A stretch of 64,000 nt of DNA from Candidatus Micrarchaeota archaeon (lineage in GTDB: Archaea; Micrarchaeota; Micrarchaeia; Anstonellales; Bilamarchaeaceae). The stretch spans positions 13,621 to 77,620 of the forward strand of contig JAGVWJ010000014.1 of the NCBI GenBank assembly GCA_018304385.1. Reading direction: 5' to 3'. Positions 2,497 through 57,609 of this stretch are shown in pieces. Position 1 is the first letter of the stretch, and each line of letters opens with the position of its first letter. Under the pieces are notes generated by a model that had not been told where the DNA came from, made no database searches, and saw nothing but the letters and a program-made list of their open reading frames with translations. The translations under genes and the position numbers were made by a program.

Positions 2497-2620
2497 CTAT
2501 GTTCTCCCCCTATTTTCTCCTTATTACGAAGCCGTCATTTTACTTATATTTTCTATAGTGACGCAGTCTTTTATAATCCTATGCTGCGTCGGCCGTCTTC
2601 ATGTTTTATATGTAAATAAA
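2497..2620 (-). repeat. promoter-leader repeat, copy 1 (upstream of Roadblock gene)
   Basis: Read on the minus strand: tttttatttacata..gacggccGACGCAG-cataggattataaaaga-CTGCGTCactatagaaaatataagtaaaatgacgg...aaggag..acatagATG. The hairpin arms are 2560-66 and 2584-90. Confidence 0.75.
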
Positions 2621-2623
2621 AAC

Positions 2624-2651
2624 TAATGGCTCATTGCTGAATGCTCATTGC
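2624..2651 (-). repeat. heptamer array, GC type, 4 units
   Basis: Minus strand: gcaatga gcattca gcaatga gccatta, followed directly by the tttttatttacata of leader copy 1. Confidence 0.75.
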
Positions 2652-3373: not shown

Positions 3374-3427
3374 AAAAGTGATATACAGCAATCGCTTAAA
3401 AATCTTTCCACAGAAAGTCATTAAATT

Positions 3428-3524
3428 GCCGACGCAGTATACGAAACCATAAGACTGCGTCACCATAGAAAACATAAGTAGAACGACTGCTTTATAAAAA
3501 TGAGAAACAAGGAGGAGGACATAG
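3428..3524 (+). repeat. promoter-leader repeat, copy 2 (upstream of FNR-like gene; 5' part divergent)
   Basis: gccGACGCAG-tatacgaaaccataaga-CTGCGTCaccatagaaaacataagtagaacgac...aaaatgagaaacaaggaggaggacatagATG. The arms are 3431-37 and 3455-61. Confidence 0.75.
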
Positions 3525-4229
3525 ATGGAGATAAAAAAATATAAGATTTCTAGTGTTAGAAATGATGGTACAAATGTAAAGATATTTACTTTAGAGAGTA
3601 CCAATGGCCATAACGTACAGTTTAAACCCGGACAGTTTGTAAACCTTTACTTACTTGAAAATGGAAACTTTTCTATTTTTAGGCAGTTTTCTATTGCATC
3701 CGGCCCAAGCAGTGCTCAGTTGGAATTCTGTATAAAGATATTACAAGATGGAAAATTTACTAGCGCACTTGATAAACTATCTATTGGTGCTGAGATCGGA
3801 TTGGCTGGGCCATTTGGCCATTTCGTATACCAAGGGCAAAAAGAATGCGTGTTTATTGCTGCTGGCACAGGAATTGCACCTATGATGAGCATGCTCCGCT
3901 ACATTAATGAGAATAAAATAGATGGCGAATTTATAGTATTATATACTAACAAAACAGAAGACTCTATAATATATTATAATGAATTAAAGAAACTTCAGGC
4001 AGAGAATAAAAATATTAAAGTAGTGTTTACGCTTACCCAAGAGACGCCTGCACATTGGCAAGGAGAACTTGGAAGAATAAGCAGTGAGATGGTTGAAAAA
4101 TACGTAACTAAGTCTAATGAAAGGATGTGGTTTTTCTGCGGGCCAGTGGAATTTGTTAAAACTATTAAAGAGCACGCATTAGGCAAGGGCGCTCAGCCTG
4201 ATAAGATGAAAATAGAGGGATGGGGATAA
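3525..4229 (+). CDS. ferredoxin-NADP reductase-like FAD/NAD(P)-binding oxidoreductase
   Basis: RQFSIAS (RxYS-type FAD motif), GTGIAPMMSM NAD(P)-binding motif and a C-terminal FFCGPVEF. There is a GGAGG 8 nt upstream of the ATG. Confidence 0.8.
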   Translation: MEIKKYKISSVRNDGTNVKIFTLESTNGHNVQFKPGQFVNLYLLENGNFSIFRQFSIASGPSSAQLEFCIKILQDGKFTSALDKLSIGAEIGLAGPFGHFVYQGQKECVFIAAGTGIAPMMSMLRYINENKIDGEFIVLYTNKTEDSIIYYNELKKLQAENKNIKVVFTLTQETPAHWQGELGRISSEMVEKYVTKSNERMWFFCGPVEFVKTIKEHALGKGAQPDKMKIEGWG

Positions 4230-4251
4230 AACATAAGCTTTTAAACTCTTT

Positions 4252-4261
4252 TTACCACAAT
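4252..4261 (+). promoter_or_regulatory. fourth TTACCACAAT occurrence, fused to a TATA-like box
   Basis: ctctttttaccacaatatatac, 107 nt upstream of the ATG of the Arg-rich membrane protein gene. Confidence 0.35.
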
Positions 4262-5774: not shown

Positions 5775-6245
5775 ATGGATAAAACTATTGATGCAATTGT
5801 AGATGGCGGTAAAGCAACATCTGGCCCACCTTTAGGACCGGCACTTGGACCATTAGGTGTAAATGCGGGTCAGGTAGTTGCGAAAATAAACGAGGCAACA
5901 AGCTCATTCTCTGGTATGAAAGTACCAGTAAAAGTAATAGTAAATACCAAAACAAAGGAATTCAAAATTGAAATTGGCACTCCACCAACAGCTGAGATAA
6001 TCAAAAAAGAAGCTGGGATAGCAAAGGGAGCAGCTAGTAAAGATGCAAAGGCAGGGAATATTGAATTAGAAAAAATTATAAAAATCGCAAAACAAAAGAG
6101 CAACTCGCTAGGCAAAGACACAAAATCAGTTGTTAATGAAATACTGGGTACTTGCGTAAGCATGGGCGTTACTGTTAACGGAAAAGATGCCAAGTTGGTT
6201 ATAAAAGAAATGAAAGAAGGAAAACATGAACCTTTACTGCCATGA
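5775..6245 (+). CDS. rpl11: 50S ribosomal protein L11 (uL11)
   Basis: GGKATSGPPLGPALGPLGVN signature, 156 aa. Confidence 0.95.
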   Translation: MDKTIDAIVDGGKATSGPPLGPALGPLGVNAGQVVAKINEATSSFSGMKVPVKVIVNTKTKEFKIEIGTPPTAEIIKKEAGIAKGAASKDAKAGNIELEKIIKIAKQKSNSLGKDTKSVVNEILGTCVSMGVTVNGKDAKLVIKEMKEGKHEPLLP

Positions 6246-6287
6246 GCTGTGAGCAGTCAGCAATGGGCCCATGGCTCAGGGCAACAA
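6239..6287 (+). repeat. heptamer array, GC type, 7 units
   Basis: gccatga gctgtga gcagtca gcaatgg gcccatg gctcagg gcaacaa. It starts on the L11 stop codon and ends at the tatttaaatatta box 16 nt before the propeller-protein ATG. Confidence 0.85.
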
Positions 6288-9365: not shown

Positions 9366-11135
9366 TTACTTAACAGTCACGGATTTCGCCAAATTTCTTG
9401 GTTTATCTACATCTCTTCCGAGCGCAAGCGCAGTATAATAAGCAATAAGTTGTAATGGAATGGTTTCAAGCAATGGATAAAGAATCTCGTCTTCTTTGCT
9501 AAGCTCCGGAAGCTGAATCCACATGTTAAACGAAGGATGTGGCTTATCGCTTATACCAATTAGATACGCTCCGCGAGCCTTTGTTTCCAATCCATTGCTT
9601 ATGCTATCATGGTAGGTATAATCTGTTGGGCAAATTAAAATAACTGGTACCCCGTGTTCTATTAATGCAAGCGTACCATGTTTAAGCTCGCCTGATGGCA
9701 TGCCTTCTGCATGAATATAACTGATCTCTTTAAGTTTAAGCGCACCTTCTAATGCAATAGGAAAGTTTACTCCTTTACCAAGAATATAAACATGAACTTT
9801 ATTCTTTAGATATTCTGCAATTTCTCGTGCTTTTAGATCAAAATAGGATATATTTTTATCGAGCATACCAATAACTGATTCTATTTTTTGTTTTTTAATT
9901 TCGCCAGAGAGTGCAAACGCAATTAAATAAAATGCCAAGATCTGATTGCTAAATGCTTTAGTAGATGCAACCGCTATTTCAGGTCCACAGTTTGTATAGA
10001 ATACCTTATTACTGTCTCTTGCTAAAGAAGAGGAAGGTACATTCACTATACTTATTATTTTCAATCCGCGCTTCTTTGCCTTGCGAACGCACTCCATGAC
10101 ATCTGCAGTTTCACCGCTTTGAGAAACTGCCAATATTACAGTATCTTTGTCAATCTCATCAACAAAATAAGAAAACTCATGCGCCATCATAACTTCGAGC
10201 GGGAATTTAGCGATCTTATTTAGAATATGTTTACCAATAACTGCAGAATGTCTCGCTGTTCCACAACCTATCGCAATTACTTTCTTATTATGCATCTCAT
10301 TTGCCAAATCCTGTGCTGAGTCTAGATTCATTCCTTGACGCATTACTACAGGTTGCTCAACTATCTCTTTTAGCATATAATGTTTATATTCTCCAAGCTC
10401 GATCTTCTGGTTTTTCCAATCTAATTTAGTTGATTGCTTGGTAACAGAATTATTAGTAAGGTAGTTAAAAAATTCAAACGTTATTTTATTACCAGATTTT
10501 TTTGCTAAAGCAATATCCCCTTCTGTCAAAAATATTGCATCATCTGTTTGATCAATAAATGCAAGAGGATCGCTTGCAAATATAGCTTCTTTTTCTGCAA
10601 TGCCAATGGCTAACGGGCTCTCGTTCTTAATTGCCACAAGCTGATCGCTATATCTTGCATCCATGATAACAAGAGAAAAGGAACCTCTTAACATTGGCGC
10701 GATTTGTTTTGCACGTTCGAATAGATCGCCTTGTAATTTTTCGAAAAGATGTGTAACAACCTCACTGTCAGTTTGTGATTTGAAAGTGTGGCCTTCCTTA
10801 ATGAGCTGCTCACGAAGTTCTAAGTAGTTTTCAATTATCCCATTGTGTACTATAGCGATCTGATTATTGCAATCAAGATGCGGGTGGGCGTTTGCCTCGG
10901 TTACATTTCCATGAGTTGCCCATCTTGTATGCCCTATAATAATACTAGCAGGATGATTAAATGTTGCTTTAGTTATCCTGCCTATTTTCTTTTCCATTAC
11001 TATCCCTGAGCTATTGATTGATGCATAACCCCAGCTATCATACCCGCGATATTCTAGCCTCTTTAGGCCTTCCACAATATCGTGTATACCTGAATCGCTT
11101 TCATTTAATTTTAGTAAACCTATAATTCCACACAT
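9366..11135 (-). CDS. glmS: glutamine--fructose-6-phosphate aminotransferase
   Basis: N-terminal MCGIIG nucleophile, two SIS domains and a C-terminal LAKSVTVK. 589 aa. Confidence 0.95.
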   Translation of the reverse strand: MCGIIGLLKLNESDSGIHDIVEGLKRLEYRGYDSWGYASINSSGIVMEKKIGRITKATFNHPASIIIGHTRWATHGNVTEANAHPHLDCNNQIAIVHNGIIENYLELREQLIKEGHTFKSQTDSEVVTHLFEKLQGDLFERAKQIAPMLRGSFSLVIMDARYSDQLVAIKNESPLAIGIAEKEAIFASDPLAFIDQTDDAIFLTEGDIALAKKSGNKITFEFFNYLTNNSVTKQSTKLDWKNQKIELGEYKHYMLKEIVEQPVVMRQGMNLDSAQDLANEMHNKKVIAIGCGTARHSAVIGKHILNKIAKFPLEVMMAHEFSYFVDEIDKDTVILAVSQSGETADVMECVRKAKKRGLKIISIVNVPSSSLARDSNKVFYTNCGPEIAVASTKAFSNQILAFYLIAFALSGEIKKQKIESVIGMLDKNISYFDLKAREIAEYLKNKVHVYILGKGVNFPIALEGALKLKEISYIHAEGMPSGELKHGTLALIEHGVPVILICPTDYTYHDSISNGLETKARGAYLIGISDKPHPSFNMWIQLPELSKEDEILYPLLETIPLQLIAYYTALALGRDVDKPRNLAKSVTVK

Positions 11136-11270
11136 GCTATGTTCTACCCCTGTTTTCTCATTCTTATATAGACGTCGTACTACTTATGTTCTCTATAGGG
11201 ACGTGGTCTTATATATTCTGCATGCCACGTCGGCCGTTCTATGTCCTCCTCATGGAAGATAAAAACTTAG
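11136..11270 (-). repeat. promoter-leader repeat, copy 3 (upstream of glmS)
   Basis: Minus strand: gtttttatcttcc..catagaacggccGACGTGG-catgcagaatatataaga-CCACGTCcctatagagaacataagtagtacgacg..aagaatgagaaaaca..catagcATG. The arms are 11200-06 and 11225-31. Confidence 0.8.
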
Positions 11271-12239: not shown

Positions 12240-12267
12240 GCCATGAGCTTTGGGCATTGAGCCAATG
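12240..12267 (+). repeat. heptamer array, GC type, 4 units
   Basis: gccatga gctttgg gcattga gccaatg, followed directly by the paralog-1 promoter motif. Confidence 0.8.
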
Positions 12268-12268
12268 C

Positions 12269-12297
12269 CTACCTTCTTAATCCCTTGTTACCACAAC
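12269..12297 (+). promoter_or_regulatory. conserved promoter motif of the repeat-protein family (paralog 1)
   Basis: ctaccttcttaatcccttgttaccacaac, ending 6 nt before the ATG. Confidence 0.6.
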
Positions 12298-12303
12298 TTC
12301 ATC

Positions 12304-13254
12304 ATGCATAAAGCTTCAGTAACAGTAGTATTTGGTAGAGAACACGAAACAAGACGTATTAGAGCCCCACATTTAAGACTAATTCAGGGTGGTTTAGCCA
12401 ATCATAAACCAGAACCAGAAGAAAGGTCAATTAACTCTTCAAGAACCGTAGAAACAGAATTCAAACGTTGGCTAGCCTTGTTTTTTATTAAGCGAGGATA
12501 TTTTTGTATTACCAAGAAAGGTTGTGATGAGCTAGCGGAAATTATAAGAAATCGATATATGGAGAATGCAAGAGAATATTTAGGTATAAACCCTACTGAT
12601 TCGTATAGGGATAATTATGTAATTACGGTAGTGGGAGTTTTAACAGATAGCAAGATTAAGGAAAGAATAAAAAGGCACATTAAAAAAATGCTAGAAGAAG
12701 GAAAAGCTGAAGAATTATATGATAAAGGGTACATTGATCGTGCTAATGAAGTAGATTGGGAAAAAAAAGAGGTACGTATTGTTGTAATAAGAAAACTCCT
12801 AGAGATAACTAGCATTGAACCTAAGGATAGTAGTTATGACCTTTTTAATAATAGTGGTTTAGTTAGAGTACTTAAAAAATATCATAAAGATTCTCACTAT
12901 AATGCTCTGGTAGAAGCAGGTTACGCATATTCTGAAGATGAGATTAAAGAACATGCAAGAACTATGCAATTTGGAACTGAAAGAATATATAAATGGGAGA
13001 TGAAAAGCGTTGGAAATTACTTTTGGGAAAGTATAGACATGAGAACTGCCGCAACTAGATGGGTCATATGGAAATTAAATAAAAATTCAAGAGAGATAAT
13101 ATTGGGTGATTTTAAAAATAATGGATTAGGCGGATTGTTAACTCATCATTACAAAGATTCTCCTTATGAAGCGCTTCTAGAAGCAGGTCTTGTCACTCCA
13201 GCAGATGAAGCACATATGCGCCGCTATGGCCAAGCAAGATTCAAAGAGGTCTAA
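12304..13254 (+). CDS. 87-aa-repeat family protein, paralog 1 (1.5 repeat units)
   Basis: Shares the EFKRWLALFFI..G...IT.KG..ELA N-domain and the DF.NNGL.GLL..Y..SPY.AL.EAGYAYSE.EI.EHA...F.T..IY.WE repeat with 18933..20459 and 23200..24474. Start chosen 7 nt after the conserved promoter motif. Confidence 0.6.
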   Translation: MHKASVTVVFGREHETRRIRAPHLRLIQGGLANHKPEPEERSINSSRTVETEFKRWLALFFIKRGYFCITKKGCDELAEIIRNRYMENAREYLGINPTDSYRDNYVITVVGVLTDSKIKERIKRHIKKMLEEGKAEELYDKGYIDRANEVDWEKKEVRIVVIRKLLEITSIEPKDSSYDLFNNSGLVRVLKKYHKDSHYNALVEAGYAYSEDEIKEHARTMQFGTERIYKWEMKSVGNYFWESIDMRTAATRWVIWKLNKNSREIILGDFKNNGLGGLLTHHYKDSPYEALLEAGLVTPADEAHMRRYGQARFKEV

Positions 13255-18811: not shown

Positions 18812-18865
18812 CAACAAGGTTTAGCCCCTAGGAAAGTTATTTTGATTATGAGCTAAACCTCGTTG
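18812..18865. promoter_or_regulatory. 14-bp-stem inverted repeat in divergent promoter region
   Basis: caacaaggtttagc (18812-18825) matches the reverse complement of gctaaacctcgttg (18852-18865) at 13 of 14 positions, with a 26-nt spacer. It lies between the idsA start and paralog 2. Confidence 0.55.
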
Positions 18866-18896
18866 TGAGCACTGAGCCATGAGCAGTGGGCAAAGA
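18862..18896 (+). repeat. heptamer array, 5 units
   Basis: gttgtga gcactga gccatga gcagtgg gcaaaga, followed directly by the paralog-2 promoter motif. Confidence 0.8.
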
Positions 18897-18925
18897 CTAC
18901 CTTTTTAATCCCTTGTTACCACAAT
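18897..18925 (+). promoter_or_regulatory. conserved promoter motif of the repeat-protein family (paralog 2)
   Basis: ctacctttttaatcccttgttaccacaat, ending 7 nt before the ATG. Confidence 0.6.
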
Positions 18926-18932
18926 TAATGAT

Positions 18933-20459
18933 ATGAGAAGACAGGCAATTGGCAGTGGGCAATGTGCAGTGAGCCAAAGGCCAATAGCTAAGAGCCAAGT
19001 GCCACTAACTGACAAAATAGATAAATCAACTGAATTCAAACGTTGGTTAGCTTTATTCTTTATTGAAAGAGGGAGATATAAAATTACTGGTAAAGGTTAT
19101 ACTGAACTAGCGCCACAAGTTATTAGACAAAACCTAGAATTTGGAGAACCAGTCAGCGATAGAAAAAGAGAACCTAGGTTAGAAAGCACAAGACCATTAA
19201 CTCCAAAAGAGATTAAGGAAACAGTAGCAGCCAGAGTAGAAGGAATGATTAGAGAGGGAAAGACTGAAGAATTACTTGATGAAGGACATCTAGCTTATAA
19301 ATCAAATTGGAAAAATAAACAAACTAGAATAACAGTAATAAAAAAACTATTAGAATTTTTAGGCGCTAGTCCTGCTAGACTGGATAAATTAAGAGAAGAA
19401 TTAGGTGAACTTATTCTAAAATCTGCAAGAGAAGAACCAACAGACACAAAAAGAATGCAAGAAGTTTTAGAAGAGATAAAAAGTAATTTAGAAAGAATTA
19501 GAAAACTAAGTTTCAACAATTTTAGATTTTATGGAATTTCTGGTATGACTGGTAAATACCATAGGAACTCTCCTTATTTAGTTTTAGTAGAAATAGGTTA
19601 CGCTTATTCTGAGGAAGAAATTAGAGAACATGCTAGAACTGGAAAGTTTGGAACTGATAAAATATATCCTTGGGAAATGCAAAAAGTCGGAAGTGAAGTT
19701 TATAAAAATAATTCAATTAGGGTAGCTGCAATAAAATGGGTAGTTTGGAAATTGAAAAAGAAACCATCAGATATAAATACAATTGATTTTCAAAGTAATT
19801 TAGGTGGATTATTAAGGTACTATAATGATTCTGTTTATTCTGCACTAGTCGACGCAGAATATGCACATACCACTGAAGAAATATTAACCCAATCTAAAAT
19901 TGGTATATTTAATGATAACAAAGCATACCCATGGGAACTAGAGAGAATGCCTTTTGGTCTATGGCCGAATAAAGAAATTAGAATAGCTGCTACTAAATGG
20001 TTAGTTTGGAAAACTAAAAAAGATCCAAGGGAGATAACTCATAAGGATTTTAACAATAATAGATTAAACGGATTATTAAATCATTGCGAAGAATATGCTT
20101 ATAGGGCATTAGTAGAAGCGGGTTATGTTTATTCTGAAGATAAAATTAAAGAGCATGCAGGAACTGGAGAATTTAAAACTGAAAAAATTTATCCCTGGGA
20201 GATGGACCCTGCTCCACATGGATTTTACGAAGAAAAAGAAAATAGAATAGCTGTAATAAAGTGGCTATTCTGGAAAACTAGAAAACAAGCAAAGGATATA
20301 ATTCAACAGGATTTTATCAATAATGGGATTGCTACTATACTAAAATATTATAATGGCTCCCCCTATGAAGCACTTTTAGAAGCAGATCTAATAAGACCAG
20401 AAAATGAATCATACATGCGAAAGCGTGGATATCTAAATCTACAAAAAAGACACAGTTAA
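18933..20459 (+). CDS. 87-aa-repeat family protein, paralog 2 (3.5 repeat units)
   Basis: Same family as 12304..13254 and 23200..24474. The N-terminal roughly 200 codons are near-identical at DNA level to paralog 3. Codons 5-25 are encoded by a 9-unit heptamer array. Confidence 0.6.
   Translation: MRRQAIGSGQCAVSQRPIAKSQVPLTDKIDKSTEFKRWLALFFIERGRYKITGKGYTELAPQVIRQNLEFGEPVSDRKREPRLESTRPLTPKEIKETVAARVEGMIREGKTEELLDEGHLAYKSNWKNKQTRITVIKKLLEFLGASPARLDKLREELGELILKSAREEPTDTKRMQEVLEEIKSNLERIRKLSFNNFRFYGISGMTGKYHRNSPYLVLVEIGYAYSEEEIREHARTGKFGTDKIYPWEMQKVGSEVYKNNSIRVAAIKWVVWKLKKKPSDINTIDFQSNLGGLLRYYNDSVYSALVDAEYAHTTEEILTQSKIGIFNDNKAYPWELERMPFGLWPNKEIRIAATKWLVWKTKKDPREITHKDFNNNRLNGLLNHCEEYAYRALVEAGYVYSEDKIKEHAGTGEFKTEKIYPWEMDPAPHGFYEEKENRIAVIKWLFWKTRKQAKDIIQQDFINNGIATILKYYNGSPYEALLEADLIRPENESYMRKRGYLNLQKRHS
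18945..19007 (+). repeat. heptamer array, GC type, 9 units, inside the 5' coding region of paralog 2
   Basis: gcaattg gcagtgg gcaatgt gcagtga gccaaag gccaata gctaaga gccaagt gccacta. Every unit starts with GC at an exact 7-nt spacing. Confidence 0.85.
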
Positions 20460-22448: not shown

Positions 22449-23147
22449 ATGCGACTTGAAATTTTAGAAATTTCAAGGCTATTGGCCCGCAGGCCAATCA
22501 GCCCTGATAAAAACAATTTAGTCCCTAATATTTTAGCGATAGGTGGTCTGCTTCTTATATTTCTAGTGCCTTATTTTTACGCACAAGATACCGCTAACAA
22601 GCTACCTGAGATTCTACTTCTATTATACTTCGTACCTACATTTTTCGTATATTCAAACATGGATGAACGTAAATTTATCCTTGCAGTAATATTTATCGCT
22701 GGGATGGCAGAATCAATGAACGTTGGTTTTGGAGATTATAAATATCTAGATGCAATAAAGGTTCCGAATTGGGTATTCATAGGATGGGCGGATACTGCCT
22801 GGGCATTGATAACATTAAATAAAATGCTAAAACCAAATACAAACCGAAATTTAACGTTAGGAGCAATAGTTACTATTTTTGCTATTTACGCGATATTTGC
22901 TTCGCATTCTATTGAAGGATTTTTTATAAATTGCTTTATAATGTCAGCTATATTCTTTGCGATCAAGCCAAAATCATATAATATATTCCTAATCGCTGTT
23001 GTATTTGGAATGGTTATAGAATACTCTGGTGTCTTCCTTTTTGGAGCATGGAGTTATGCAATTAGCCCACCAGATCTAAGCAGGCTTGGTGCAATGTATT
23101 CTTTTATTTATTTCTTAGCTGCTATGATTTCGAGATATGAATTATAG
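22449..23147 (+). CDS. hypothetical polytopic membrane protein
   Basis: 232 aa with 6-7 hydrophobic segments. No motif recognised. Confidence 0.45.
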   Translation: MRLEILEISRLLARRPISPDKNNLVPNILAIGGLLLIFLVPYFYAQDTANKLPEILLLLYFVPTFFVYSNMDERKFILAVIFIAGMAESMNVGFGDYKYLDAIKVPNWVFIGWADTAWALITLNKMLKPNTNRNLTLGAIVTIFAIYAIFASHSIEGFFINCFIMSAIFFAIKPKSYNIFLIAVVFGMVIEYSGVFLFGAWSYAISPPDLSRLGAMYSFIYFLAAMISRYEL

Positions 23148-23163
23148 AAGCATTGAGTATATA

Positions 23164-23191
23164 CTACCTTTTATTCCTTTGTTACCACAAT
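23164..23191 (+). promoter_or_regulatory. conserved promoter motif of the repeat-protein family (paralog 3)
   Basis: ctaccttttattcctttgttaccacaat, ending 8 nt before the ATG. Confidence 0.6.
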
Positions 23192-23199
23192 TTATAGGT

Positions 23200-24474
23200 A
23201 TGACAAGACGTACTGCAATGAGCCATGAGCCTTGGGCAGTGGGCAAAACACGAAACGCTGGACGTGAGACTACAATAAGCCAACAGCCACTAACTGATCA
23301 AATAGAAAAATCAGCAGAATTTAAGCGACGGTTAGCTTTATTCTTTATTGAAATAGGGAGATACAAGATTACTGATAAAGGATATGAAGAACTAGCACCT
23401 GTAGTATTTAGGCAAAATCTAGAATTTGGAGAACCTGTTAGTGATAGAGTTAGAGAACCAAGGTTAGAAAGTAAAAGACCATTAACTCCAAAAGAGATTA
23501 AGGAAACAGTAGCAGCGAAAGTAGAAGGAATGATTAGAGAGGGAAAGACTGAAGAATTACTTGATGAGGGGCATATAATATATAAAGCAGATTGGAAAGA
23601 AAAAAGAACTAGAATTAAAGTAATAAAAAAACTATTAGAATTTTTAGGAGCTAGTCCTGTTAGATTGGATGGATTAAGAGAAGAATTAAGCGAACTTATT
23701 CTAAAATCTGCCAGAGAAGAAAAGACAGATACAAAAAGAATGCAAGAGGTTTTAGAAGAGATTCAAAGAAATTTGGAGAGAGTTAGAAAAATAACCAAAG
23801 ATGATTTTATTAACAATGGATTAGGTGGGTTGTTAATAAGTCATTACAAAAACTCTCCGCATTCTGCGTTAGTAGAAGCTGGATATGCTTACTCTGAAAA
23901 TGAAATAAAGGAGCATGCTAGAACTGGAGAATTTGGAACTGATAAGATATATCCTTGGGAACATAACCAAACCGTACATAAGTTTTATAAAAAATCTGAA
24001 ATTAGGGTGGCAGCTATTGAATGGCTTATTTGGAGACTAAAGAAAGATCCAAAGGAAATAAATACTGACGATTTCAGGAACAATGGGTTAAGTGGATTGC
24101 TAAATCACTATAATGGTTCTCCCTATGCTGCACTACTAGAAGCTGGTTATGCTTATTCTGAAGATGAAATCTTAGAACATGCTAAAAAAATGGAGTTCAG
24201 AACTGATAGGATTTATCCTTGGGAACTAACAAAAATGCCTGTTGAACTATGGCCTAATAAAGAAATCAGAATAGCAGCAACCAAATGGTTGCTTTGGAAG
24301 TTAAAAAAAGAAGAACCAAGAGAAATAACCAGAAGGGATTTTATTAAAAACGGGCTCCAAGGCTTATTAGATAGATACGATGGCTCTCCCTATGAAGCAC
24401 TTCTAGAAGCCAGCCTAGTAGCGCCCACAGATGAATCTTACATGCGAGAACGAGGATACAGAAACTTAATATAG
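23200..24474 (+). CDS. 87-aa-repeat family protein, paralog 3 (2.5 repeat units)
   Basis: Start moved to MTRRTAMSHEP (ATG 23200), 9 nt after the conserved promoter motif, which removes the overlap with 22449..23147. Codons 6-17 are encoded by a 5-unit heptamer array. Confidence 0.6.
   Translation: MTRRTAMSHEPWAVGKTRNAGRETTISQQPLTDQIEKSAEFKRRLALFFIEIGRYKITDKGYEELAPVVFRQNLEFGEPVSDRVREPRLESKRPLTPKEIKETVAAKVEGMIREGKTEELLDEGHIIYKADWKEKRTRIKVIKKLLEFLGASPVRLDGLREELSELILKSAREEKTDTKRMQEVLEEIQRNLERVRKITKDDFINNGLGGLLISHYKNSPHSALVEAGYAYSENEIKEHARTGEFGTDKIYPWEHNQTVHKFYKKSEIRVAAIEWLIWRLKKDPKEINTDDFRNNGLSGLLNHYNGSPYAALLEAGYAYSEDEILEHAKKMEFRTDRIYPWELTKMPVELWPNKEIRIAATKWLLWKLKKEEPREITRRDFIKNGLQGLLDRYDGSPYEALLEASLVAPTDESYMRERGYRNLI
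23215..23249 (+). repeat. heptamer array, GC type, 5 units, inside the 5' coding region of paralog 3
   Basis: gcaatga gccatga gccttgg gcagtgg gcaaaac. Confidence 0.8.
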
Positions 24475-24857: not shown

Positions 24858-26078
24858 TTAATCAACTTTAAATATTTTTTTCGCTTCTTTAATCCCATCA
24901 CAAAGCTTATCCACATCTTTTTTATCATTATAAATATAGAAACTAGCTCTACTGCTAGCTGGCAATGCTAAACGCTCGTGCAATGGCATAGCACAATGAT
25001 GACCACTTCTAATAGCTACATTATATTCATCTAAGATGGAGGCAAGATCATGCGGATGAACACCATTAACAGTAAATGCAATAACACCTGCACGCTTTTC
25101 TGGATTTTTAGGACCAAAAATATTAACCCCGTTTATTTCTGTCATTTTTTGCAGTGCGTATTGAGTAATAATCTGTTCATGTTTTCTTATATTTTCCATT
25201 CCAAGTTTTCCAAGATAATCTATTGCAGCTCCTAAGCCAATCACACTGGAAGCTGGAGGCGTGCCTGACTCAAACTTAAACGGTAATTCGTTCCATTTTG
25301 ACTCTTCCACATGTACTTCAGAAATCATGTCCCCACCATACAAAAACGGATCCGTCTCTTCCAGCACTTGCTCTTTGCCGTATAATATACCTACACCAGT
25401 TGGACCAAGCATTTTATGACCTGAAAAAGCAAAAAAATCGCAATCAATTGCGCTAGCGTCTATTTGCATATGAGGGATACTTTGTGCGCCATCAACTAAT
25501 ACTTTTGCGCCCGCATCATGAGCAAGCTTACACAGTTTATTTACATTATTTAGAGTTCCAAGAACATTAGACACATGTGTGATCGCTAGTAATTTTGCAC
25601 CTTTTATTTTTTCAAAATCAGATTCTTTTAGTTCGCCTTCTTCATTTATGTCAATTATCTCAAGTTTTGCGCCTTTTTGTTTTGCTAATTGCTGCCATGG
25701 CACGAAATTACTATGATGCTCCATTATTGAAATAACTATTTTATCTCCTTTTTTGATATTTTTTTCTCCCCAACCGCGCATAACTAGATTTATGGATTCA
25801 GTAGTATTTTTCGTGAAAATAATCTCTTGCTCGCTTTTGGCAGATATAAAATCACGAACCTTGGTTCTTACATTCTCAAATTTCTCGCTAGCTTCTTCAC
25901 TTATTTTGTATATCCCGCGGTGTACATTTGCATTATAATTAGTATAAAATTCATTTACTGCATCTATTACTTGTTGCGGTCGCTGAGAGGTGGCTGCAGA
26001 ATCCAGATAAACAAGTGTGGGATTATTTTTAAAAATAGGAAAATCTTCTTTTATTTTATCGATGTTCATATTGCTCAT
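24858..26078 (-). CDS. sufS: cysteine desulfurase SufS
   Basis: PLP-lysine motif FSGHKMLGPTG and active-site RSGHHCAMP. 406 aa. Confidence 0.95.
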   Translation of the reverse strand: MSNMNIDKIKEDFPIFKNNPTLVYLDSAATSQRPQQVIDAVNEFYTNYNANVHRGIYKISEEASEKFENVRTKVRDFISAKSEQEIIFTKNTTESINLVMRGWGEKNIKKGDKIVISIMEHHSNFVPWQQLAKQKGAKLEIIDINEEGELKESDFEKIKGAKLLAITHVSNVLGTLNNVNKLCKLAHDAGAKVLVDGAQSIPHMQIDASAIDCDFFAFSGHKMLGPTGVGILYGKEQVLEETDPFLYGGDMISEVHVEESKWNELPFKFESGTPPASSVIGLGAAIDYLGKLGMENIRKHEQIITQYALQKMTEINGVNIFGPKNPEKRAGVIAFTVNGVHPHDLASILDEYNVAIRSGHHCAMPLHERLALPASSRASFYIYNDKKDVDKLCDGIKEAKKIFKVD

Positions 26079-26102
26079 TGCTCAAAGCCCATTGCTCACG
26101 GC
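26068..26102 (-). repeat. heptamer array, GC type, 5 units, spanning the sufC stop and sufS start
   Basis: Minus strand: gccgtga gcaatgg gctttga gcaatga gcaatat. It encodes the last residues of SufC (TAVSNGL-stop) and the first codons of SufS (MSN). Confidence 0.8.
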
Positions 26103-26834: not shown

Positions 26835-26950
26835 CGTCTTATGCCCTCCTTATGCTCAAGCACTAGAGTATCTCTTAGGTTAGCCGCAGGACCCACCGCA
26901 AAGCGGTTCCCCCGCGGCGGCCTTCTTATGTATTCATTATGTAAATAAAA
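26835..26950 (-). repeat. promoter-leader repeat, copy 4 (divergent variant upstream of sufC)
   Basis: It shares the 5' ttttatttacataatgaatacataagaaggccg and the 3' aaggagggcata..ATG. The central hairpin is replaced by a GC-rich structure (accgc-ttt-gcggt nested in gccgc...gcggc). Confidence 0.5.
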
Positions 26951-26985
26951 CCTTGGCCCAAAGCTCATGGCTCATTGCTCATGGC
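26951..26985 (-). repeat. heptamer array, GC type, 5 units, centre of the sufC/sufB divergent region
   Basis: Minus strand: gccatga gcaatga gccatga gctttgg gccaagg, followed directly by the ttttatttacata of leader copy 4. Confidence 0.85.
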
Positions 26986-27047
26986 AGTATAATTTAGGTA
27001 TGCCTAAATTTTTAAACTTAAGCATAGATATTCATATAGTTGATTTT

Positions 27048-29647: not shown

Positions 29648-30058
29648 ATGCTCGCTATAGATGGAACAAATCTTGTACTCGGACGCGCTGCCTCGCAGAT
29701 TGCAAAAAAACTATTGCAAGGCGAGCAAGTGCATTTAGTAAACGCTGAGAGTATGATTATACATGGGAATCCAAAACAAATTATAGAGAAATATACACAA
29801 CGAAGACGCATTCAGCATAAAGGAACTCCAGAAAAATCGCCATCCTGGCCAAAGATACCAAATTTGCTCGTTAGAAGAATAATCAGAGGTATGCTACCTT
29901 GGAAAAGATCAAGAGGGAAAGATGCTTATAAGAAATTATTTGTTTATGTTGGCAATCCGAAAAAATTAGAAGCAAAAAAATTAGATAATGCGGAATTTAA
30001 ATCTGCAAACCGCCATATAACGATTTTGGAGCTTTGTAAGAATTTTGGTTATGCATAA
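29648..30058 (+). CDS. rpl13: 50S ribosomal protein L13 (uL13)
   Basis: IDGTNLVLGRAASQIAKKLLQGE N-terminus, typical of uL13. Confidence 0.9.
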   Translation: MLAIDGTNLVLGRAASQIAKKLLQGEQVHLVNAESMIIHGNPKQIIEKYTQRRRIQHKGTPEKSPSWPKIPNLLVRRIIRGMLPWKRSRGKDAYKKLFVYVGNPKKLEAKKLDNAEFKSANRHITILELCKNFGYA

Positions 30059-30068
30059 AGTGATTTTT

Positions 30069-30632
30069 ATGGAAGAAACAAAAAAAGAGGAGATAAAGGA
30101 AGAAGCAGTAGCACCAACAACAGCTAAAAAAGAGCGAAAGCCAAGAAAAAAGAAAGAAGAAACAGTAAAAAGCGAGGCTGGAGCAGAAGAACCTAAAAAA
30201 GAGGAAACGAAATCAAAGAAAAAAAAGAAAAAACAGGCTTTGGTTCTACGTGGCAAAAGAAAAGAGAGCATTGCACGAGCAACAATACGTGCAGGAAAAG
30301 GAAATGTTCGCATAAATCATATGAAATTAGAAGCTTATTATTCTAACAAATATATTAGAGATATAGTAAGACAACCATTAAGCTATCTTGGCCCAGAGAC
30401 ACTTAGCATTGATATCAGTATAGATGTAATTGGTGGCGGTATGATGGGCCAAGCACAGGCAGCAAGAACTGCTATTGCAAATGCGCTAGTTGAATATTTC
30501 CCAGATCAAAATCTAAAAGAAAAATTCTTAAGTATAGATAGGTCACTATTAATAGAAGATGTTAGACGCGTTGAACCAAAGAAATTCAAAGGGCCAAAGG
30601 CTCGAGCAAGATTCCAGAAGTCGTACAGGTGA
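30069..30632 (+). CDS. rps9: 30S ribosomal protein S9 (uS9) with K/E-rich N-terminal extension
   Basis: GKRKESIARATIR core and a C-terminal ARARFQKSYR. About 60 extra low-complexity K/E residues sit at the N-terminus. Confidence 0.9.
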   Translation: MEETKKEEIKEEAVAPTTAKKERKPRKKKEETVKSEAGAEEPKKEETKSKKKKKKQALVLRGKRKESIARATIRAGKGNVRINHMKLEAYYSNKYIRDIVRQPLSYLGPETLSIDISIDVIGGGMMGQAQAARTAIANALVEYFPDQNLKEKFLSIDRSLLIEDVRRVEPKKFKGPKARARFQKSYR

Positions 30633-30634
30633 CT

Positions 30635-30655
30635 GCCTTGGGCAGTGAGCCATTG
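30635..30655 (+). repeat. heptamer array, GC type, 3 units
   Basis: gccttgg gcagtga gccattg, then ggttttatattacata (leader copy 5). It begins 3 nt after the S9 stop. Confidence 0.7.
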
Positions 30656-30787
30656 GGTTTTATATTACATAAGGTTTCATAGAACGGCCGACGCGACCAT
30701 AAAGAAAATACGTGTGTCGCGTCCCTAAAGGTTTCATAGGTAAAACGACGGCTTTGTTAGAATGGGAGAACAGAAGGAGGTCATAGC
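30656..30787 (+). repeat. promoter-leader repeat, copy 5 (upstream of rpoN)
   Basis: ttttatattacataaggtttcatagaacggccGACGCGAC-cataaagaaaatacgtgt-GTCGCGTCcctaaaggtttcataggtaaaacgacgg..agaatgggagaacagaaggaggtcatagcATG. The arms are 30690-97 and 30716-23. Confidence 0.8.
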
Positions 30788-30982
30788 ATGGAATTCCCAA
30801 TAAGATGTTTTAGTTGTGGCGGAGTTATCGGAGATTTATACGAACAATACAAATCATTATCAAAAGATAAAGGTCCTGAAGCAGCACTTAACGATCTTGG
30901 ATTAGATAGATATTGTTGTAGAAGAATGTTTGTTTCACATATCGAAATTACAGATAAGATATCGAAGTATCCAAGAATTTAG
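30788..30982 (+). CDS. rpoN: DNA-directed RNA polymerase subunit N (Rpo10)
   Basis: PIRCFSCG...RYCCRRM zinc motif, 64 aa. Confidence 0.95.
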   Translation: MEFPIRCFSCGGVIGDLYEQYKSLSKDKGPEAALNDLGLDRYCCRRMFVSHIEITDKISKYPRI

Positions 30983-31016
30983 CAGTGAGCTTTGGGCAGT
31001 GGGCCTTGAGCCACTG
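30982..31016 (+). repeat. heptamer array, GC type, 5 units
   Basis: gcagtga gctttgg gcagtgg gccttga gccactg, then ggttttattaacata (leader copy 6). It begins on the last base of the rpoN stop. Confidence 0.85.
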
Positions 31017-31146
31017 GGTTTTATTAACATAAGTAATACCTAGGACGACCGACGTGGCATTAAGAAAATATAAGACCACGTCCCTATAGAGAATATAAGT
31101 AGAACGACGAATATGTAAGAATGAGAAAACAAAAGTATAATACAGC
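31017..31146 (+). repeat. promoter-leader repeat, copy 6 (immediately upstream of tRNA-Pro)
   Basis: ttttattaacataag..gaccGACGTGG-cattaagaaaatataaga-CCACGTCcctatagagaatataagtagaacgacg..aagaatgagaaaacaaaag, then tRNA +1 at 31147. The arms are 31051-57 and 31076-82. It lacks the GGAGG..catagATG tail of the protein-gene copies. Confidence 0.8.
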
Positions 31147-31278
31147 GGGATCGTGAGGTAACCTGGCATCCTGCGAGCTTGGGGTGTTCGTTATCTGAGT
31201 GCGCTTTTTAGGTAAAAAGTGCCCAAAAACTGGGACGCTAACTAAAAAGTCCCAGAAATTCAAATCTCAGCGGTCCCA
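31147..31278 (+). tRNA. tRNA-Pro(GGG) with a 59-nt non-canonical intron in the T-arm/T-loop
   Basis: Hand fold. Acceptor GGGATCG (31147-53) pairs with CGGTCCC (31271-77), followed by discriminator A. The D-arm is AGG..GG..CCT. The anticodon arm is CGAGC-TTGGGGT-GTTCG (anticodon GGG at 31181-83, G37). The variable loop is TTAT. T-stem CTGAG (31195-99) pairs with CTCAG (31266-70), with T-loop TTCAAAT (31259-65). The 59 nt at 31200-31258 interrupt position 53/54 (or 54/55). The mature length is 73 nt. Confidence 0.8.
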
Positions 31279-31371
31279 TTTATTTTAATAAACTCACTAC
31301 AAAGACAAGGTAAATGACCTTAGTAAAGGATCGCAGTATACTAAATTTGGAGTTTAATAGAGGTGCATAAA

Positions 31372-31998
31372 ATGGTAGAGAAAACAGGATTGTTAGTAAA
31401 GCAGGAAAATTATTTGGAAGCAGGAATACATATAGGAACGAAAATACGAACGTATGATATGCGCAGATTCGTATTTAAACGCAGGGATGATGGCTTATTT
31501 ATCTTGGATTTACGTAAAGCTGATCAAAAACTTTTGCACGCTGCAAAGCTTCTTGCAAGATATAAACCAGAGGAAGTTTTAATAGTTGCGTCACGCGCAT
31601 ATTCTGGAAACCCAGCTGCAAAATTTTCTAAATTAACTGGAATCAGTACATGTAAAGGAAGATATACTCCAGGAACTATGACAAATCTTTCATATAAACA
31701 ATTTGCAGAGCCAAAAATATTATTTGTATGCGATCCAAAAGGTGAGAGGCAAGCTATTGCTGAAGCAGCGGCAAATGGAGTGCCAGTTATTGCGCTCTGT
31801 GATACAGATAATGAAACAAAGTTTATTGATTTAATAGTTCCGGTAAATAATAAAGGAAAACGCTCGCTAGCGCTTATCTTTTACATATTAACTAGAGAGA
31901 TAATGCTTGCACAAGGAAAAATTAATTCTTATGAAGAATTTACTCATGATATGAGCTATTTCGAGCAGGCAGAAGAAGCAGCGAAGAAAGCAGAATAG
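31372..31998 (+). CDS. rps2: 30S ribosomal protein S2 (uS2)
   Basis: YLEAGIHIGTK, VPVIALCDTDN and a GAGGTG 6 nt upstream of ATG 31372. Confidence 0.93.
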   Translation: MVEKTGLLVKQENYLEAGIHIGTKIRTYDMRRFVFKRRDDGLFILDLRKADQKLLHAAKLLARYKPEEVLIVASRAYSGNPAAKFSKLTGISTCKGRYTPGTMTNLSYKQFAEPKILFVCDPKGERQAIAEAAANGVPVIALCDTDNETKFIDLIVPVNNKGKRSLALIFYILTREIMLAQGKINSYEEFTHDMSYFEQAEEAAKKAE

Positions 31999-33262: not shown

Positions 33263-33292
33263 GTTTAATACTAAAAAGTAAATATTTAATAA

Positions 33293-33366
33293 GCCATGAG
33301 CAGTGGGCAGTGAGCCGTGGGCCAACTCGTTTGGTGGCTCACTGCTCATGGCCCAATGCCCAAGGC
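33293..33366. repeat. inverted pair of GC-type heptamer arrays (5 + 5 units)
   Basis: Forward: gccatga gcagtgg gcagtga gccgtgg gccaact (33293-327). Reverse-oriented: tggtggc tcactgc tcatggc ccaatgc ccaaggc (33332-366). Confidence 0.85.
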
Positions 33367-53500: not shown

Positions 53501-53595
53501 AAGAATAGAACTATGATGAAATATAATAAATTATCTTTTTTAAGTCTCAGATTAGTACTTCCGAAGGTAATTAAATCTTAATGCTTTTTTTCATG

Positions 53596-53623
53596 GTCGC
53601 GAGTCTCGCGTTCTAGGTCTTGC
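53596..53623 (+). repeat. heptamer array, GT type, 4 units, inside the IS element
   Basis: gtcgcga gtctcgc gttctag gtcttgc. Confidence 0.6.
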
Positions 53624-53691
53624 CTGATATATAGGATCAAATAAGGAAAAACACAACCTAGTTTTCACTGTTAAAAAATTTTCTGAGCTAA

Positions 53692-54846
53692 CTACATTGC
53701 AATTTTAAGGGGTAAAACAACAAGATTATTTCTGAAGAAGTCTATTAGCTCATCTTTTATCTCATCAACTGTTATTTTTATCTCAAAATTTTCTATGTTA
53801 AAATCATTCATCAATAAATTTATATAAACCCAGAAATTGTAAAGAAGCATAGAAATTACAAAGAAAAAATACCTGACATTTCCTTCTTTGCATGAAGTTT
53901 TTATTCTAAACTGATCATGAACTCTATGAGCTGTTTCAATCCCCCAACGTTGTTTGTACAAATCACTTAAGAGTAAAACCTCATTCCTATATTCTGAAAC
54001 AGGAATATTTGTAACGTATCCATAAATTTTCTTTTCTTCATGCTCATTATCTTCGATAATTACAAGATCAATCCATTCAGATTCTTTGTCTGAATTACTT
54101 ATTTCATAGGCCTGAAAGACAGCAGGCAACCCTTTACATTCCTTTAGTACTCTTTCAAAATGAGAATCCTGTTTTGCTGGCATTAGAAAGTTAATTCTTT
54201 TTTCCCTAAACAGTGCAAAAACATCAGTTTCATAGAATTCCCTGTCAAGAAGAACCAAATCAGGCTTTATCCAATATGCATTAAGAAATTCCAGTGCTTT
54301 GTTTATTAGTGCAATTTTGTCATCTCCTCTGTAAACAGGATAAGCAAATAGAAGAAACCTTATTCCATTTACTACTAATGCAACTGTAAAAAACTTGAAA
54401 CAGTAGTAAGTGCCATCCTTTGGCTCATAGCCAGTTACATATTCACAGTTTTTATCTCCATAAAATGCTTCTGGGGTAAAATCAAACGCAATTACTACTT
54501 TTATGCTTGGGAATCTTCTCTGAATAAGCTTGATTGTTCTCCTACTTACAAATGTTCTCATCATTCTTTCTATGTTTTCTATTGTTGTTTTGTCTTTTAT
54601 ATGCAATAAAGCATCATCAGCAGAAGGATAATTACCTGTTTTTGATCTGTTTTCTGTTGATTTATTGCTTATAGCTGCATCAACAAACAGTTTCATTATC
54701 TGGGCTGAGTTATATCTTGCATTGGCTCTAAACTGGAAAAGATTGTAATTCAGCAGCTCACGGCTGAGCTTTTCCAGTATATTCTTCTCTTTTTCCTGTG
54801 AGCTAAAGGGTTTTAAGTTTTCTGGGAGGAAAACCATAGTAGCCAC
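53692..54846 (-). CDS. DDE transposase (IS4 superfamily, ISH3-like)
   Basis: C-terminal YKQRWGIETAHR (the Y-R-E-K region of IS4-type transposases) plus DREF and LLDREFY acidic motifs. The start is GTG at 54846 or ATG at 54837. Confidence 0.8.
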   Translation of the reverse strand: MATMVFLPENLKPFSSQEKEKNILEKLSRELLNYNLFQFRANARYNSAQIMKLFVDAAISNKSTENRSKTGNYPSADDALLHIKDKTTIENIERMMRTFVSRRTIKLIQRRFPSIKVVIAFDFTPEAFYGDKNCEYVTGYEPKDGTYYCFKFFTVALVVNGIRFLLFAYPVYRGDDKIALINKALEFLNAYWIKPDLVLLDREFYETDVFALFREKRINFLMPAKQDSHFERVLKECKGLPAVFQAYEISNSDKESEWIDLVIIEDNEHEEKKIYGYVTNIPVSEYRNEVLLLSDLYKQRWGIETAHRVHDQFRIKTSCKEGNVRYFFFVISMLLYNFWVYINLLMNDFNIENFEIKITVDEIKDELIDFFRNNLVVLPLKIAM

Positions 54847-54886
54847 CTGTTTATTTTGGTCGTTCTAATCAGAATAAACAGTGGCT
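54841..54886 (-). promoter_or_regulatory. hairpin covering the transposase start region
   Basis: agccac(c)tgtttatt (54841-55) pairs with aataaacagtggct (54873-86), leaving one bulged base. It overlaps the GTG start. Confidence 0.5.
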
Positions 54887-57553: not shown

Positions 57554-57588
57554 AAAATCAACCTATTATTTGACTCAAAACTTAGGGT

Positions 57589-57609
57589 CCATTGCCCACT
57601 GCTCATGAC
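57589..57609 (-). repeat. heptamer array, 3 units, spanning the E1alpha stop, between E1alpha and E1beta
   Basis: Minus strand: gtcatga gcagtgg gcaatgg. The TGA of the first unit is the E1alpha stop codon. Confidence 0.65.

Follow-up and report, generated by a model that had tools for sequence, protein, structure and literature searches.

The window analysed here, a stretch of 64,000 nt from contig JAGVWJ010000014.1 of a Candidatus Micrarchaeota archaeon, carries a dispersed repeat, termed R1, whose five copies stand directly upstream of unrelated genes: a gene of a hypothetical 109-aa protein (copy A), a FAD/NAD-binding oxidoreductase gene (B), glmS (C), rpoN (D) and a tRNA-Pro gene (E). Copies D and E lie inside the conserved rpl18e-rpl13-rps9-rpoN-tRNA-rps2 cluster. 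The original prediction counted six copies; five of them were confirmed by covariance models, whereas the sixth, before sufC, belongs to a sister family, here called F-type. The observation of a dispersed repeat is confirmed, and R1 is a real, undescribed repeat family among the dispersed intergenic repeats that carry expression signals. The copies and their parts (SD, Shine-Dalgarno sequence) are listed below.

Copy A, 2497..2649, minus strand: long form before the 109-aa hypothetical gene (ATG at 2496); heptads 2623-2649, TATA 2609-2622, 5′ box 2591-2603, hairpin 2560-2590 (GACGCAG/CTGCGTC), conserved block 2533-2559, AAGGAGAAAATA 2511-2525, SD 2504-2510, ACATAG 2497-2503
Copy B, 3431..3524, plus strand: short form without its own promoter module, before the FAD/NAD oxidoreductase gene (ATG 3525); hairpin 3431-3461, native TATA CTTAAAAATC 3395-3404, 27 nt upstream of the stem
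Copy C, 11136..11244, minus strand: short form before glmS (ATG at 11135); hairpin 11200-11231 (GACGTGG/CCACGTC), native TATA 11258-11265, 26 nt upstream of the stem
Copy D, 30633..30787, plus strand: long form between rps9 (stop at 30632) and rpoN (ATG 30788); heptads 30633-30657, TATA 30658-30671, hairpin 30690-30723 (GACGCGAC/GTCGCGTC), SD 30773-30780
Copy E, 30983..31146, plus strand: long form that occupies the entire spacer from the rpoN stop (30982) to tRNA-Pro; heptads 30983-31018, TATA 31019-31031, hairpin 31051-31082, SD position degenerate (AAAGTATAATACAGC)
tRNA-Pro(GGG), 31147..31278, plus strand: the gene that copy E precedes; 59-nt insertion after position 53

Two covariance models, the first built from 5 copies and the second from 14, were run on the whole window, also with filters off, and both returned five strong matches (84-116 bits) and no more: 2509-2608 (−), 3413-3512 (+), 11149-11249 (−), 30672-30774 (+) and 31033-31133 (+). 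Copy A scored 98-107 bits, and the next-best match, with 21.5 bits, fell inside an open reading frame (ORF) of a DDE transposase at 54531-54636. The repeat finder paired 2493-2593, 3428-3528, 11136-11254 and 31028-31146 at 78-82% identity, and a 23-nt core pattern had 4 matches in the window, against 0.02 expected. About nine further copies were found with a covariance model in related contigs. These relatives are metagenomic Micrarchaeota (DPANN) contigs, with loci numbered here with the prefix L; loci orthologous to those of the window were fetched via S2, GlmS and the 109-aa protein.

The gene labels given earlier to glmS, rpoN, sufC and the oxidoreductase are backed by Pfam, and the tRNA-Pro label is correct; the ‘Roadblock’ label of the 109-aa protein had to be abandoned, as this protein has no Pfam match and only 8 homologues, named hypothetical in the sources. 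The raw window gave no tRNA with ARAGORN, which detects tRNA-Pro(GGG) only once the 59-nt insertion is removed; it is because of this insertion that both ARAGORN and Rfam miss the gene. Non-canonical insertions are present in tRNA genes at 31147-31278 of the window and in L023 (3444-3590), L026 (1441-1567) and L005 (5252-5385); the insertion sequence differs among relatives, the tRNAs of L023 and L026 have a further insertion in the D-loop region, and these insertion-bearing genes likewise escape ARAGORN and Rfam. Ribosomal protein S9, encoded upstream of copy D (30045-30632), has a Lys/Glu-rich N-terminal extension of about 70 residues before its Pfam domain. Gene callers and ORF lists stretch the KaiC-like gene into copy B (3389-3475) and SufB into heptads (26967-27047), while alignment with relatives places the real starts near 3389 and 27048.

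Organization of the R1 unit

The core unit of R1 comprises about 95-105 nt, from the 5′ box CATAGAACGGCC to the hexamer ACATAG, and the motif order claimed in the original prediction proved correct in the alignment and the coordinates. An optional module of three to five heptads, (NNTGRGC)n, and a TATA box, TTTTAT(T)TACATA, is followed by the 5′ box and the hairpin, after which come a conserved block, a short variable stretch, AATGAGAAAACA, GGAGG (in protein-gene copies only) and ACATAG, a hexamer found at both edges of the unit. The stem is built of GACG and 3-4 variable pairs and closes an A-rich loop of 17-18 nt. Conservation is highest in the block that follows the hairpin, CTATAGAgAAyATAAGTAgaaCGACG (C.CTATAGA.AA.ATAAGTA...CGACG over the copies). 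Other genes in the window have short leaders of an ordinary kind that lack ACATAG, and therefore the SD-proximal part belongs to the repeat.

Two forms of the unit can be distinguished by their surroundings. The long forms A, D and E, equipped with heptads and TATA, fill the spacers behind a co-directional upstream gene, i.e., the junctions from the KaiC-like gene to the 109-aa gene, from rps9 to rpoN and from rpoN to the tRNA gene. The short forms B and C, devoid of the heptad/TATA module, are each placed between two divergent genes. Native TATA boxes stand 26-27 nt upstream of them; these boxes align with the sequences of relatives and, in the case of copy B, are common to them.

Each of the 11 copies with an identifiable downstream gene is oriented with that gene, as had been predicted for the window, and 10 of them stop 0-2 nt before the ATG or the tRNA 5′ end (in protein-gene copies the ATG comes 0-1 nt after ACATAG); the exception is the copy of L026, lengthened by extra hairpins. 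A GGAGG-like SD is present in all seven mRNA-linked copies and degenerate in all four that precede a tRNA or other non-coding sequence. Since the SD depends on the type of the gene, at least that part of the leader appears to be transcribed and selected, and the mature mRNA would thus include the leader. The argument that a position before a tRNA gene speaks against a purely translational role was also upheld, as two different tRNAs in two organisms exclude such a role.

Conserved sequence in 5′ leaders might suggest a riboswitch-like device, sensing a ligand or a protein and co-regulating a regulon, and in agreement with the original prediction no known family was recognized: Rfam gave no match in the window at gathering score, only chance matches (E of 2.8 or more) in a permissive search of 30500-31400, and nothing at E<=0.01 in six related loci. 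The structure of the leader makes such a device very improbable. Beyond a single hairpin of 7-8 bp, the other ~60 nt are purine-rich (61-73% purine downstream of the hairpin) and whole leaders are no more structured than shuffles (z-scores −1.9 to +0.6). Moreover, the downstream genes are unrelated (glmS, rpoN, oxidoreductase, KH protein, PIN toxin and tRNAs) and orthologous genes are not consistently occupied.

The hairpin and the F-type leaders

The hairpin is the only consensus structure of R1, and the prediction that it is maintained by compensatory change was borne out. Three of its 7 pairs have changed on both sides; in the alignment of 14 copies 94.8% of the cells are paired, and the observed covariation was reached by none of 500 shuffles, with slid registers of the alignment likewise far below it. 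The stem alleles CAG/CTG and TGG/CCA each occur in two organisms and CGAC/GTCG in copy D, so that the covariation comes down to few events. The base of the stem, GACG/CGTC, is nearly invariant and the inner pairs are variable; the R1 hairpins fold with −10 to −16 kcal/mol. The companion claim of a conserved loop held only in part: the loop is moderately conserved across copies, and it is the block 3′ of the hairpin that varies least. Nor does the loop seem to be the real promoter, as was suggested earlier, since its TATA-like run is not conserved and reads, e.g., CATAAGAGAAACAATGGA in L005b and TATACGAAACCATAAGA in copy B.

Several other readings of the leader were set aside. An alternative pairing of CGTC with a downstream GACG amounts to 4 bp only. 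In the 12-copy alignment, a C/D box small RNA (box C RUGAUGA, box D CUGA) is represented by AAUGAGA alone, with no conserved CUGA, and a kink-turn bound by L7Ae, defined by a 3-nt bulge followed by tandem G.A pairs beside the stem, finds a loop whose 3′ side ends in GA, but no copy with GA at positions 4-5 of the 5′ side. A leader peptide is contradicted by the ATG of AATGAG, which is missing in copy A and L002 and whose frame is not conserved. Bulge-helix-bulge and anti-SD readings were ruled out from the alignment.

The leader before sufC, detected by neither covariance model, shows what can be replaced in this design:

F-type leader, 26835..26983, minus strand: heptads 26951-26983, TATA 26938-26950, 5′ box ACATAAGAAGGCC 26919-26931, a different, GC-rich hairpin 26883-26918, and an end in GTGCTTGAGCATAAGGAGGGCATAAGACG-ATG

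It shares with R1 the heptads, the TATA box, the 5′ box and a related SD-proximal box, while its hairpin and middle part are unrelated to R1. Other F-type leaders precede glmS in L029 and occupy the rps9-rpoN spacer of L026, and in each of them the place behind the 5′ box is taken by a further, different hairpin. Taken together, the three F-type hairpins have 7 G.U pairs on the sense strand and 0 on the antisense strand and are more stable in sense by 3.8-6.7 kcal/mol. The confinement of G.U pairs to the sense strand favours a hairpin that acts as sense RNA, and nothing else in this analysis speaks as strongly for a hairpin position that is transcribed and under selection as RNA.

The design of a 5′ box plus a hairpin extends beyond the R1 family. 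Sites of TAG[AG]ACG are intergenic in 7 of 11 cases in the window, and near 53615 a promoter has the arrangement of TAGAACG plus a hairpin. At this place (53590-53640, minus strand) TATATATC-N17-CCTAGAACG is followed by a short hairpin, CGCGAGACTCGCG, before a gene of 268 aa without a Pfam match.

Predicted promoter position and the proposed expression cassette

The position of the hairpin relative to the TATA box is the main clue to the start of transcription. From the 3′ end of the TATA box (TTTTATTT) to the first stem base there are 23-24 nt in A, D, E, the sufC leader (F) and L005b, 26-27 nt in B and C with their native boxes, and 19-21 nt in several relatives. The archaeal TATA criterion, an A+T-only 8-mer ~23 nt upstream of the start, was calibrated on four apparently leaderless genes (36887, 42931 and 40284 in the window, and glmS of L030), in which the 3′ end of TATA is about 23 nt (23-24) from the ATG. 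Because the TATA-to-stem spacing equals the TATA-to-ATG spacing of leaderless genes, R1 transcripts probably begin with the hairpin.

On balance, and with modest confidence, we regard R1 as a lineage-specific modular promoter/5′-leader expression cassette of a Micrarchaeota (DPANN) clade, copied 5′ of unrelated genes. At operon-internal junctions the long form would bring its own heptad array and TATA box; at sites with a pre-existing promoter the cassette would sit ~25 nt downstream of the native TATA. Transcription starting at or beside the first stem base would yield an RNA with a 5′-terminal stem-loop, whose role would most likely be protection or marking of the 5′ end. In front of protein genes the leader would provide the SD, and thereby short-leader, leaderless and operon-internal genes would become independently transcribed, leadered ones; in front of tRNA genes it would form a long 5′ leader of the precursor, which RNase P presumably cuts off. 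The invariant block is most likely a site for a sequence-specific protein, and the spread may have proceeded by duplication or recombination, in the course of which leaders would have exchanged modules. Such a functional cassette is favoured over a neutral selfish repeat by the strict co-orientation with genes and the position right at their starts, by an SD that depends on the type of gene, by the spacing from the promoter and by a hairpin that is either maintained or replaced.

Several facts weigh against this account. The start point rests on spacing, and in L005a, L006 and L023 there is no TATA box at the expected distance. The 5′ box makes the region from −6 to −1 G+C-rich, which is unusual for an archaeal promoter. 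The R1 hairpins are without sense-strand bias in stability, and their covariation consists of two or three stem alleles shared by subfamilies, which two operator classes could give as well. A role as 5′-end stabilizer leaves the invariant block 3′ of the hairpin unexplained.

Alternatively, the functional core could be an internal promoter, with AGAGAAyATAAGTA as TFB recognition element (BRE) and TATA box, a start at AATGAGAAA, a leader of ~20 nt, the palindrome as the operator of a dimeric transcription factor and the upstream T-run terminating the preceding gene. The block behind the hairpin varies least of all parts and is found in every copy, even where an upstream TATA is lacking; ~23 nt further downstream comes the conserved AATGAGAAA, with an A+T-rich stretch before it; an SD leader of ~20 nt is typical of other genes in the window; and operator classes are expected to show no more than the two or three stem alleles found. 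The sequence of the supposed TATA box speaks against this, since half of the copies have a C within it (ACATAAGT), the TTCATAGGTA of copy D does not make a TATA box, and four inserted hairpins interrupt the block in L026. The half-sites would be 25-28 bp apart, centre to centre, and a protein operator leaves unexplained the sister-family hairpins, which are unrelated to the palindrome and have sense-only G.U pairs. An internal promoter as the functional core is thus rather doubtful, but the two start points are not exclusive and tandem promoters are possible. Within the block (2541-2559, 11181-11199, 31083-31101 and homologous positions) CACTATAGA/CACTATAG resembles the T7/SP6 core and ATATAAGTA the yeast mitochondrial promoter nonamer, which we take to be probably a coincidence with archaeal TATA-like sequence; no single-subunit RNA polymerase was present among the Pfam-scanned ORFs or in the precomputed gene tables for 1-40 kb.

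The 5′ end could also be made by processing, if a hairpin-specific endonuclease cut at the base of the stem or at ACATAG, separating polycistrons and setting the 5′ ends of mRNA and pre-tRNA. The nearly invariant stem base with variable inner pairs, ACATAG at both unit edges, the presence of the element before stable RNA genes and the two copies inside the ribosomal-protein cluster, which is tightly packed in relatives, would all fit. We nevertheless consider it improbable: the long forms have their own TATA at the right spacing, so that their 5′ end needs no processing, B and C lie between divergent genes with no co-directional transcript upstream, and no candidate nuclease was identified.

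Site turnover, heptad arrays and known systems

The mobility considered in the original prediction is reflected in relatives, where orthologous sites are differently occupied:

tRNA-Pro site: R1 in the window (copy E), in L023 (with the other stem allele) and in L026 (with about six extra hairpins, one covarying with L003); without it in L020, L021 and L022, where tRNA-Pro follows rpoN after 2, 17 and 8 nt
rps9-rpoN spacer: 155 nt with R1 (copy D) in the window, 107 nt with an F-type leader in L026; without them in L023 (62 nt, no hairpin) and L021 (9 nt)
glmS site: R1 in the window (copy C), F-type in L029; without them in L030 and L020
Oxidoreductase and 109-aa gene sites: R1 in the window (copies B and A); both empty in L031 and L020

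In a relative at the 85% level the spacers at the oxidoreductase and 109-aa gene sites are 53 and 158 nt (lengths only). A tree of S2, a single protein with weak support, groups the window with L023 and L026, as sister to L020. This patchy occupancy shows that the cassette is duplicative. Copy E shares 88% identity with its paralogue C and 71% with the L023 copy that occupies the orthologous site; for most pairs of copies the value is 65-80%, with a range of 65-88% within and between genomes. Such identities, with blocks and pairing kept, argue for constraint on each copy and not for a recent selfish burst. The family is therefore old, turns over between sites and seems to exchange modules, while blocks and pairing are kept in each copy. 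Polymorphism within the population was not seen: exact-protein look-ups found the same genome in other Rifle aquifer samples with identical copies.

Six of the further copies came from a metagenome scan with the core pattern (contigs Ga0209343 and Ga0105164), and they precede a KH-domain gene, a PIN gene, another ORF, an intron-bearing tRNA and a structured non-coding stretch. The same pattern gave one chance match, in an alphaproteobacterium, among species-representative genomes (a set without this organism), and no match in viral contigs. The non-coding stretch (L002 1085-1260, minus strand; ~190 nt after an element copy) has long helices, GGGAAGAGCGAA...TTCGCTCTTCCC, no ORF and no Rfam match, and may be an intron-bearing tRNA or another stable RNA. 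The tRNA-Pro leader of L026 (1220-1440) is expanded by about six unrelated hairpins of 7-11 bp with GAA or 4-5 nt loops; one of them, compared with L003 (1790-1860), reads GAAGAAC/GTTCTTC in one and GGAAAAC/GTTTTCC in the other, i.e., two compensatory changes between two organisms.

The varying occupancy of orthologous sites, and the closeness of copy E to its paralogue rather than to the orthologous-site copy, are what would be expected of a non-autonomous mobile element, either similar to miniature inverted-repeat transposable elements (MITE) or to REP/PATE sequences, in which a transposase would recognize the hairpin as DNA and copies would be seen at gene starts only because insertions are tolerated there in a compact genome. 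Tandem partial units upstream of C and of the L023 copy, the DDE transposase gene in the window (53692-54837) and the spacers of relatives, which with 2-60 nt leave few viable insertion points, point the same way. The anatomy of the unit makes this explanation, all in all, unlikely. A MITE should have terminal inverted repeats, but in consensus and single-copy folds the internal hairpin is the sole inverted repeat, and the ends of the unit (heptads or 5′ box at one side, ACATAG at the other) are not complementary. No variable target-site duplication is apparent: nearly all copies are flanked by an identical ACATAG, which is absent from the empty sites of L020, L030 and L031, although with glmS identities of 65-79% these relatives are too distant for the junctions to be placed to the exact base. 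IS200/IS605 derivatives such as PATE and REP/RAYT have two subterminal hairpins, and here there is one hairpin per unit; no HUH/Y1 transposase was found by Pfam on cassette-adjacent genes and ~20 further ORFs or in the precomputed gene tables for 1-40 kb, some small ORFs lying outside the scan. Furthermore, orientation follows the gene in 11 of 11 copies and not one DNA strand (both strands within 30 kb), the copies are old (65-80% identity) with pairing and blocks kept, and the SD is kept before protein genes only.

The DDE gene was rejected as the source, since the match inside its ORF is marginal (21.5 bits), its flanks have no similarity to the R1 element and no convincing terminal inverted repeats were seen. 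Just upstream of this gene (PF01609, minus strand) a hairpin with a 13-bp stem at 54840-54885 has TAGAACGACC, the 5′ box motif, in its loop.

The heptad module of the long forms also occurs apart from R1. Its 3-unit pattern, with one mismatch allowed, matched 22 overlapping places in the window, which amount to ~12 arrays, against 0.03 expected. The (NNTGRGC)n arrays, n=3-5, are:

2623-2649, minus strand
6241-6268, plus strand
12242-12262, plus strand
18864-18891, plus strand
18956-19000
23217-23244, plus strand
26073-26100, minus strand
26951-26983, minus strand
30633-30657, plus strand
30977-31018, plus strand
33290-33322, plus strand, with 33337-33364, minus strand
57587-57605, minus strand

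They are situated at gene junctions and often begin at the upstream stop codon, the first unit holding or directly following it in several cases (e.g., sufC, rpoN, L11); runs of TGAGC units can put TGA in all three frames, and some arrays form inverted pairs (33290-33364). Among relatives they are present in the Ga0209343 loci (L003, L005) and absent from L020-L023, L026 and L029-L031. Directly after a heptad array a motif, CTACCTTYTTAATCCCTTGTTACCACAA, was noticed at 12263-12296 and 18891-18924, and in a weaker form at 4227-4260. It precedes two paralogous genes, 12265-13254 and 18933-20459, of a family that includes 23137-24474 and has no Pfam match; the region of this family, 12.4-24.5 kb, has shared DNA repeats of 60-86%.

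A bolder version of the cassette account, which we put forward as speculation and hold to be unlikely in its full extent, is that of a self-propagating archaeal ‘leader cassette’, whose specific targets for copying are the short interval that separates a TATA box from the start of a leaderless gene or tRNA, and the interval from a stop codon to the gene behind it. The transcription units of a reduced DPANN genome would thereby be rewired, with operons broken and leaderless genes made SD-led; the hairpin and the invariant CTATAGAGAA..ATAAGTAGAACGACG block would be the predicted site of a dedicated factor, and the (NNTGRGC)n arrays a second punctuation signal (terminator, insulator or recombination pad).

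DPANN genomes are tiny and tightly packed, and how their transcription units are built and changed is almost unstudied. If the expression-cassette reading is true, a repeat uniting a promoter, a 5′ stem-loop and a ribosome-binding site offers a direct route to rapid rewiring of expression; in the window the cassette separates rpoN and tRNA-Pro from the rest of the conserved ribosomal-protein cluster. The element also provides a defined sequence for studies of archaeal 5′-end biology, in particular of what a 5′-terminal hairpin may do in stability or processing, and of a putative sequence-specific factor. Should R1 turn out to be selfish and merely tolerated, it remains a new family of archaeal repeats, and one that misleads gene callers.

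No description of the element was found in the literature on DPANN or Micrarchaeota leaders and repeats. Short, modular dispersed repeats are well known in bacteria: Correia/CREE, BOX, ERIC and BIME/REP sequences form stem-loops in transcripts, sometimes carry promoters and vary in occupancy between strains. They usually have terminal inverted repeats or are whole palindromes, lie in both orientations and often 3′ of genes, whereas the archaeal element described here is always oriented with its gene, directly adjoins the start codon or the tRNA 5′ end and has a TATA box and an SD. The bacterial leaders of ompA, aprE and ermC have a hairpin at or near the transcript 5′ end, then an unstructured leader with an SD. 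These stabilizers are, however, features of single genes that face other decay machinery, and for the Micrarchaeota hairpin the 5′-end position is deduced from the TATA spacing.

A loose parallel, which concerns the heptad arrays only, is provided by the TAACTGA heptamers of Beggiatoaceae and cyanobacteria, short tandem heptamers (2-6 units) in intergenic regions of unrelated genes, including ribosomal protein operons (MacGregor 2015, PMC4679880). The TAACTGA units are placed there next to the start codon, while the NNTGRGC heptads, with two free positions and an archaeal host, stand at or after the upstream stop codon and upstream of TATA.

The closest described parallel is that of the promoter-bearing intergenic repeats of halovirus HF2 (Russ, Pfeiffer, Dyall-Smith 2021, PMC8707807). 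Both are repeated archaeal-type intergenic sequences with A+T-rich promoter motifs, located upstream of and oriented with genes, and 9 of 9 tested HF2 repeats drove a reporter (PMC8707807). The HF2 repeats are 29 or 58 bp long, viral and conserved in position within a virus genus (PMC8707807), whereas the Micrarchaeota element is cellular and of 95-165 nt. Compared by description only, it adds to the HF2 design a covarying hairpin, a long leader, an SD, tRNA sites and a set of downstream genes that varies among relatives.

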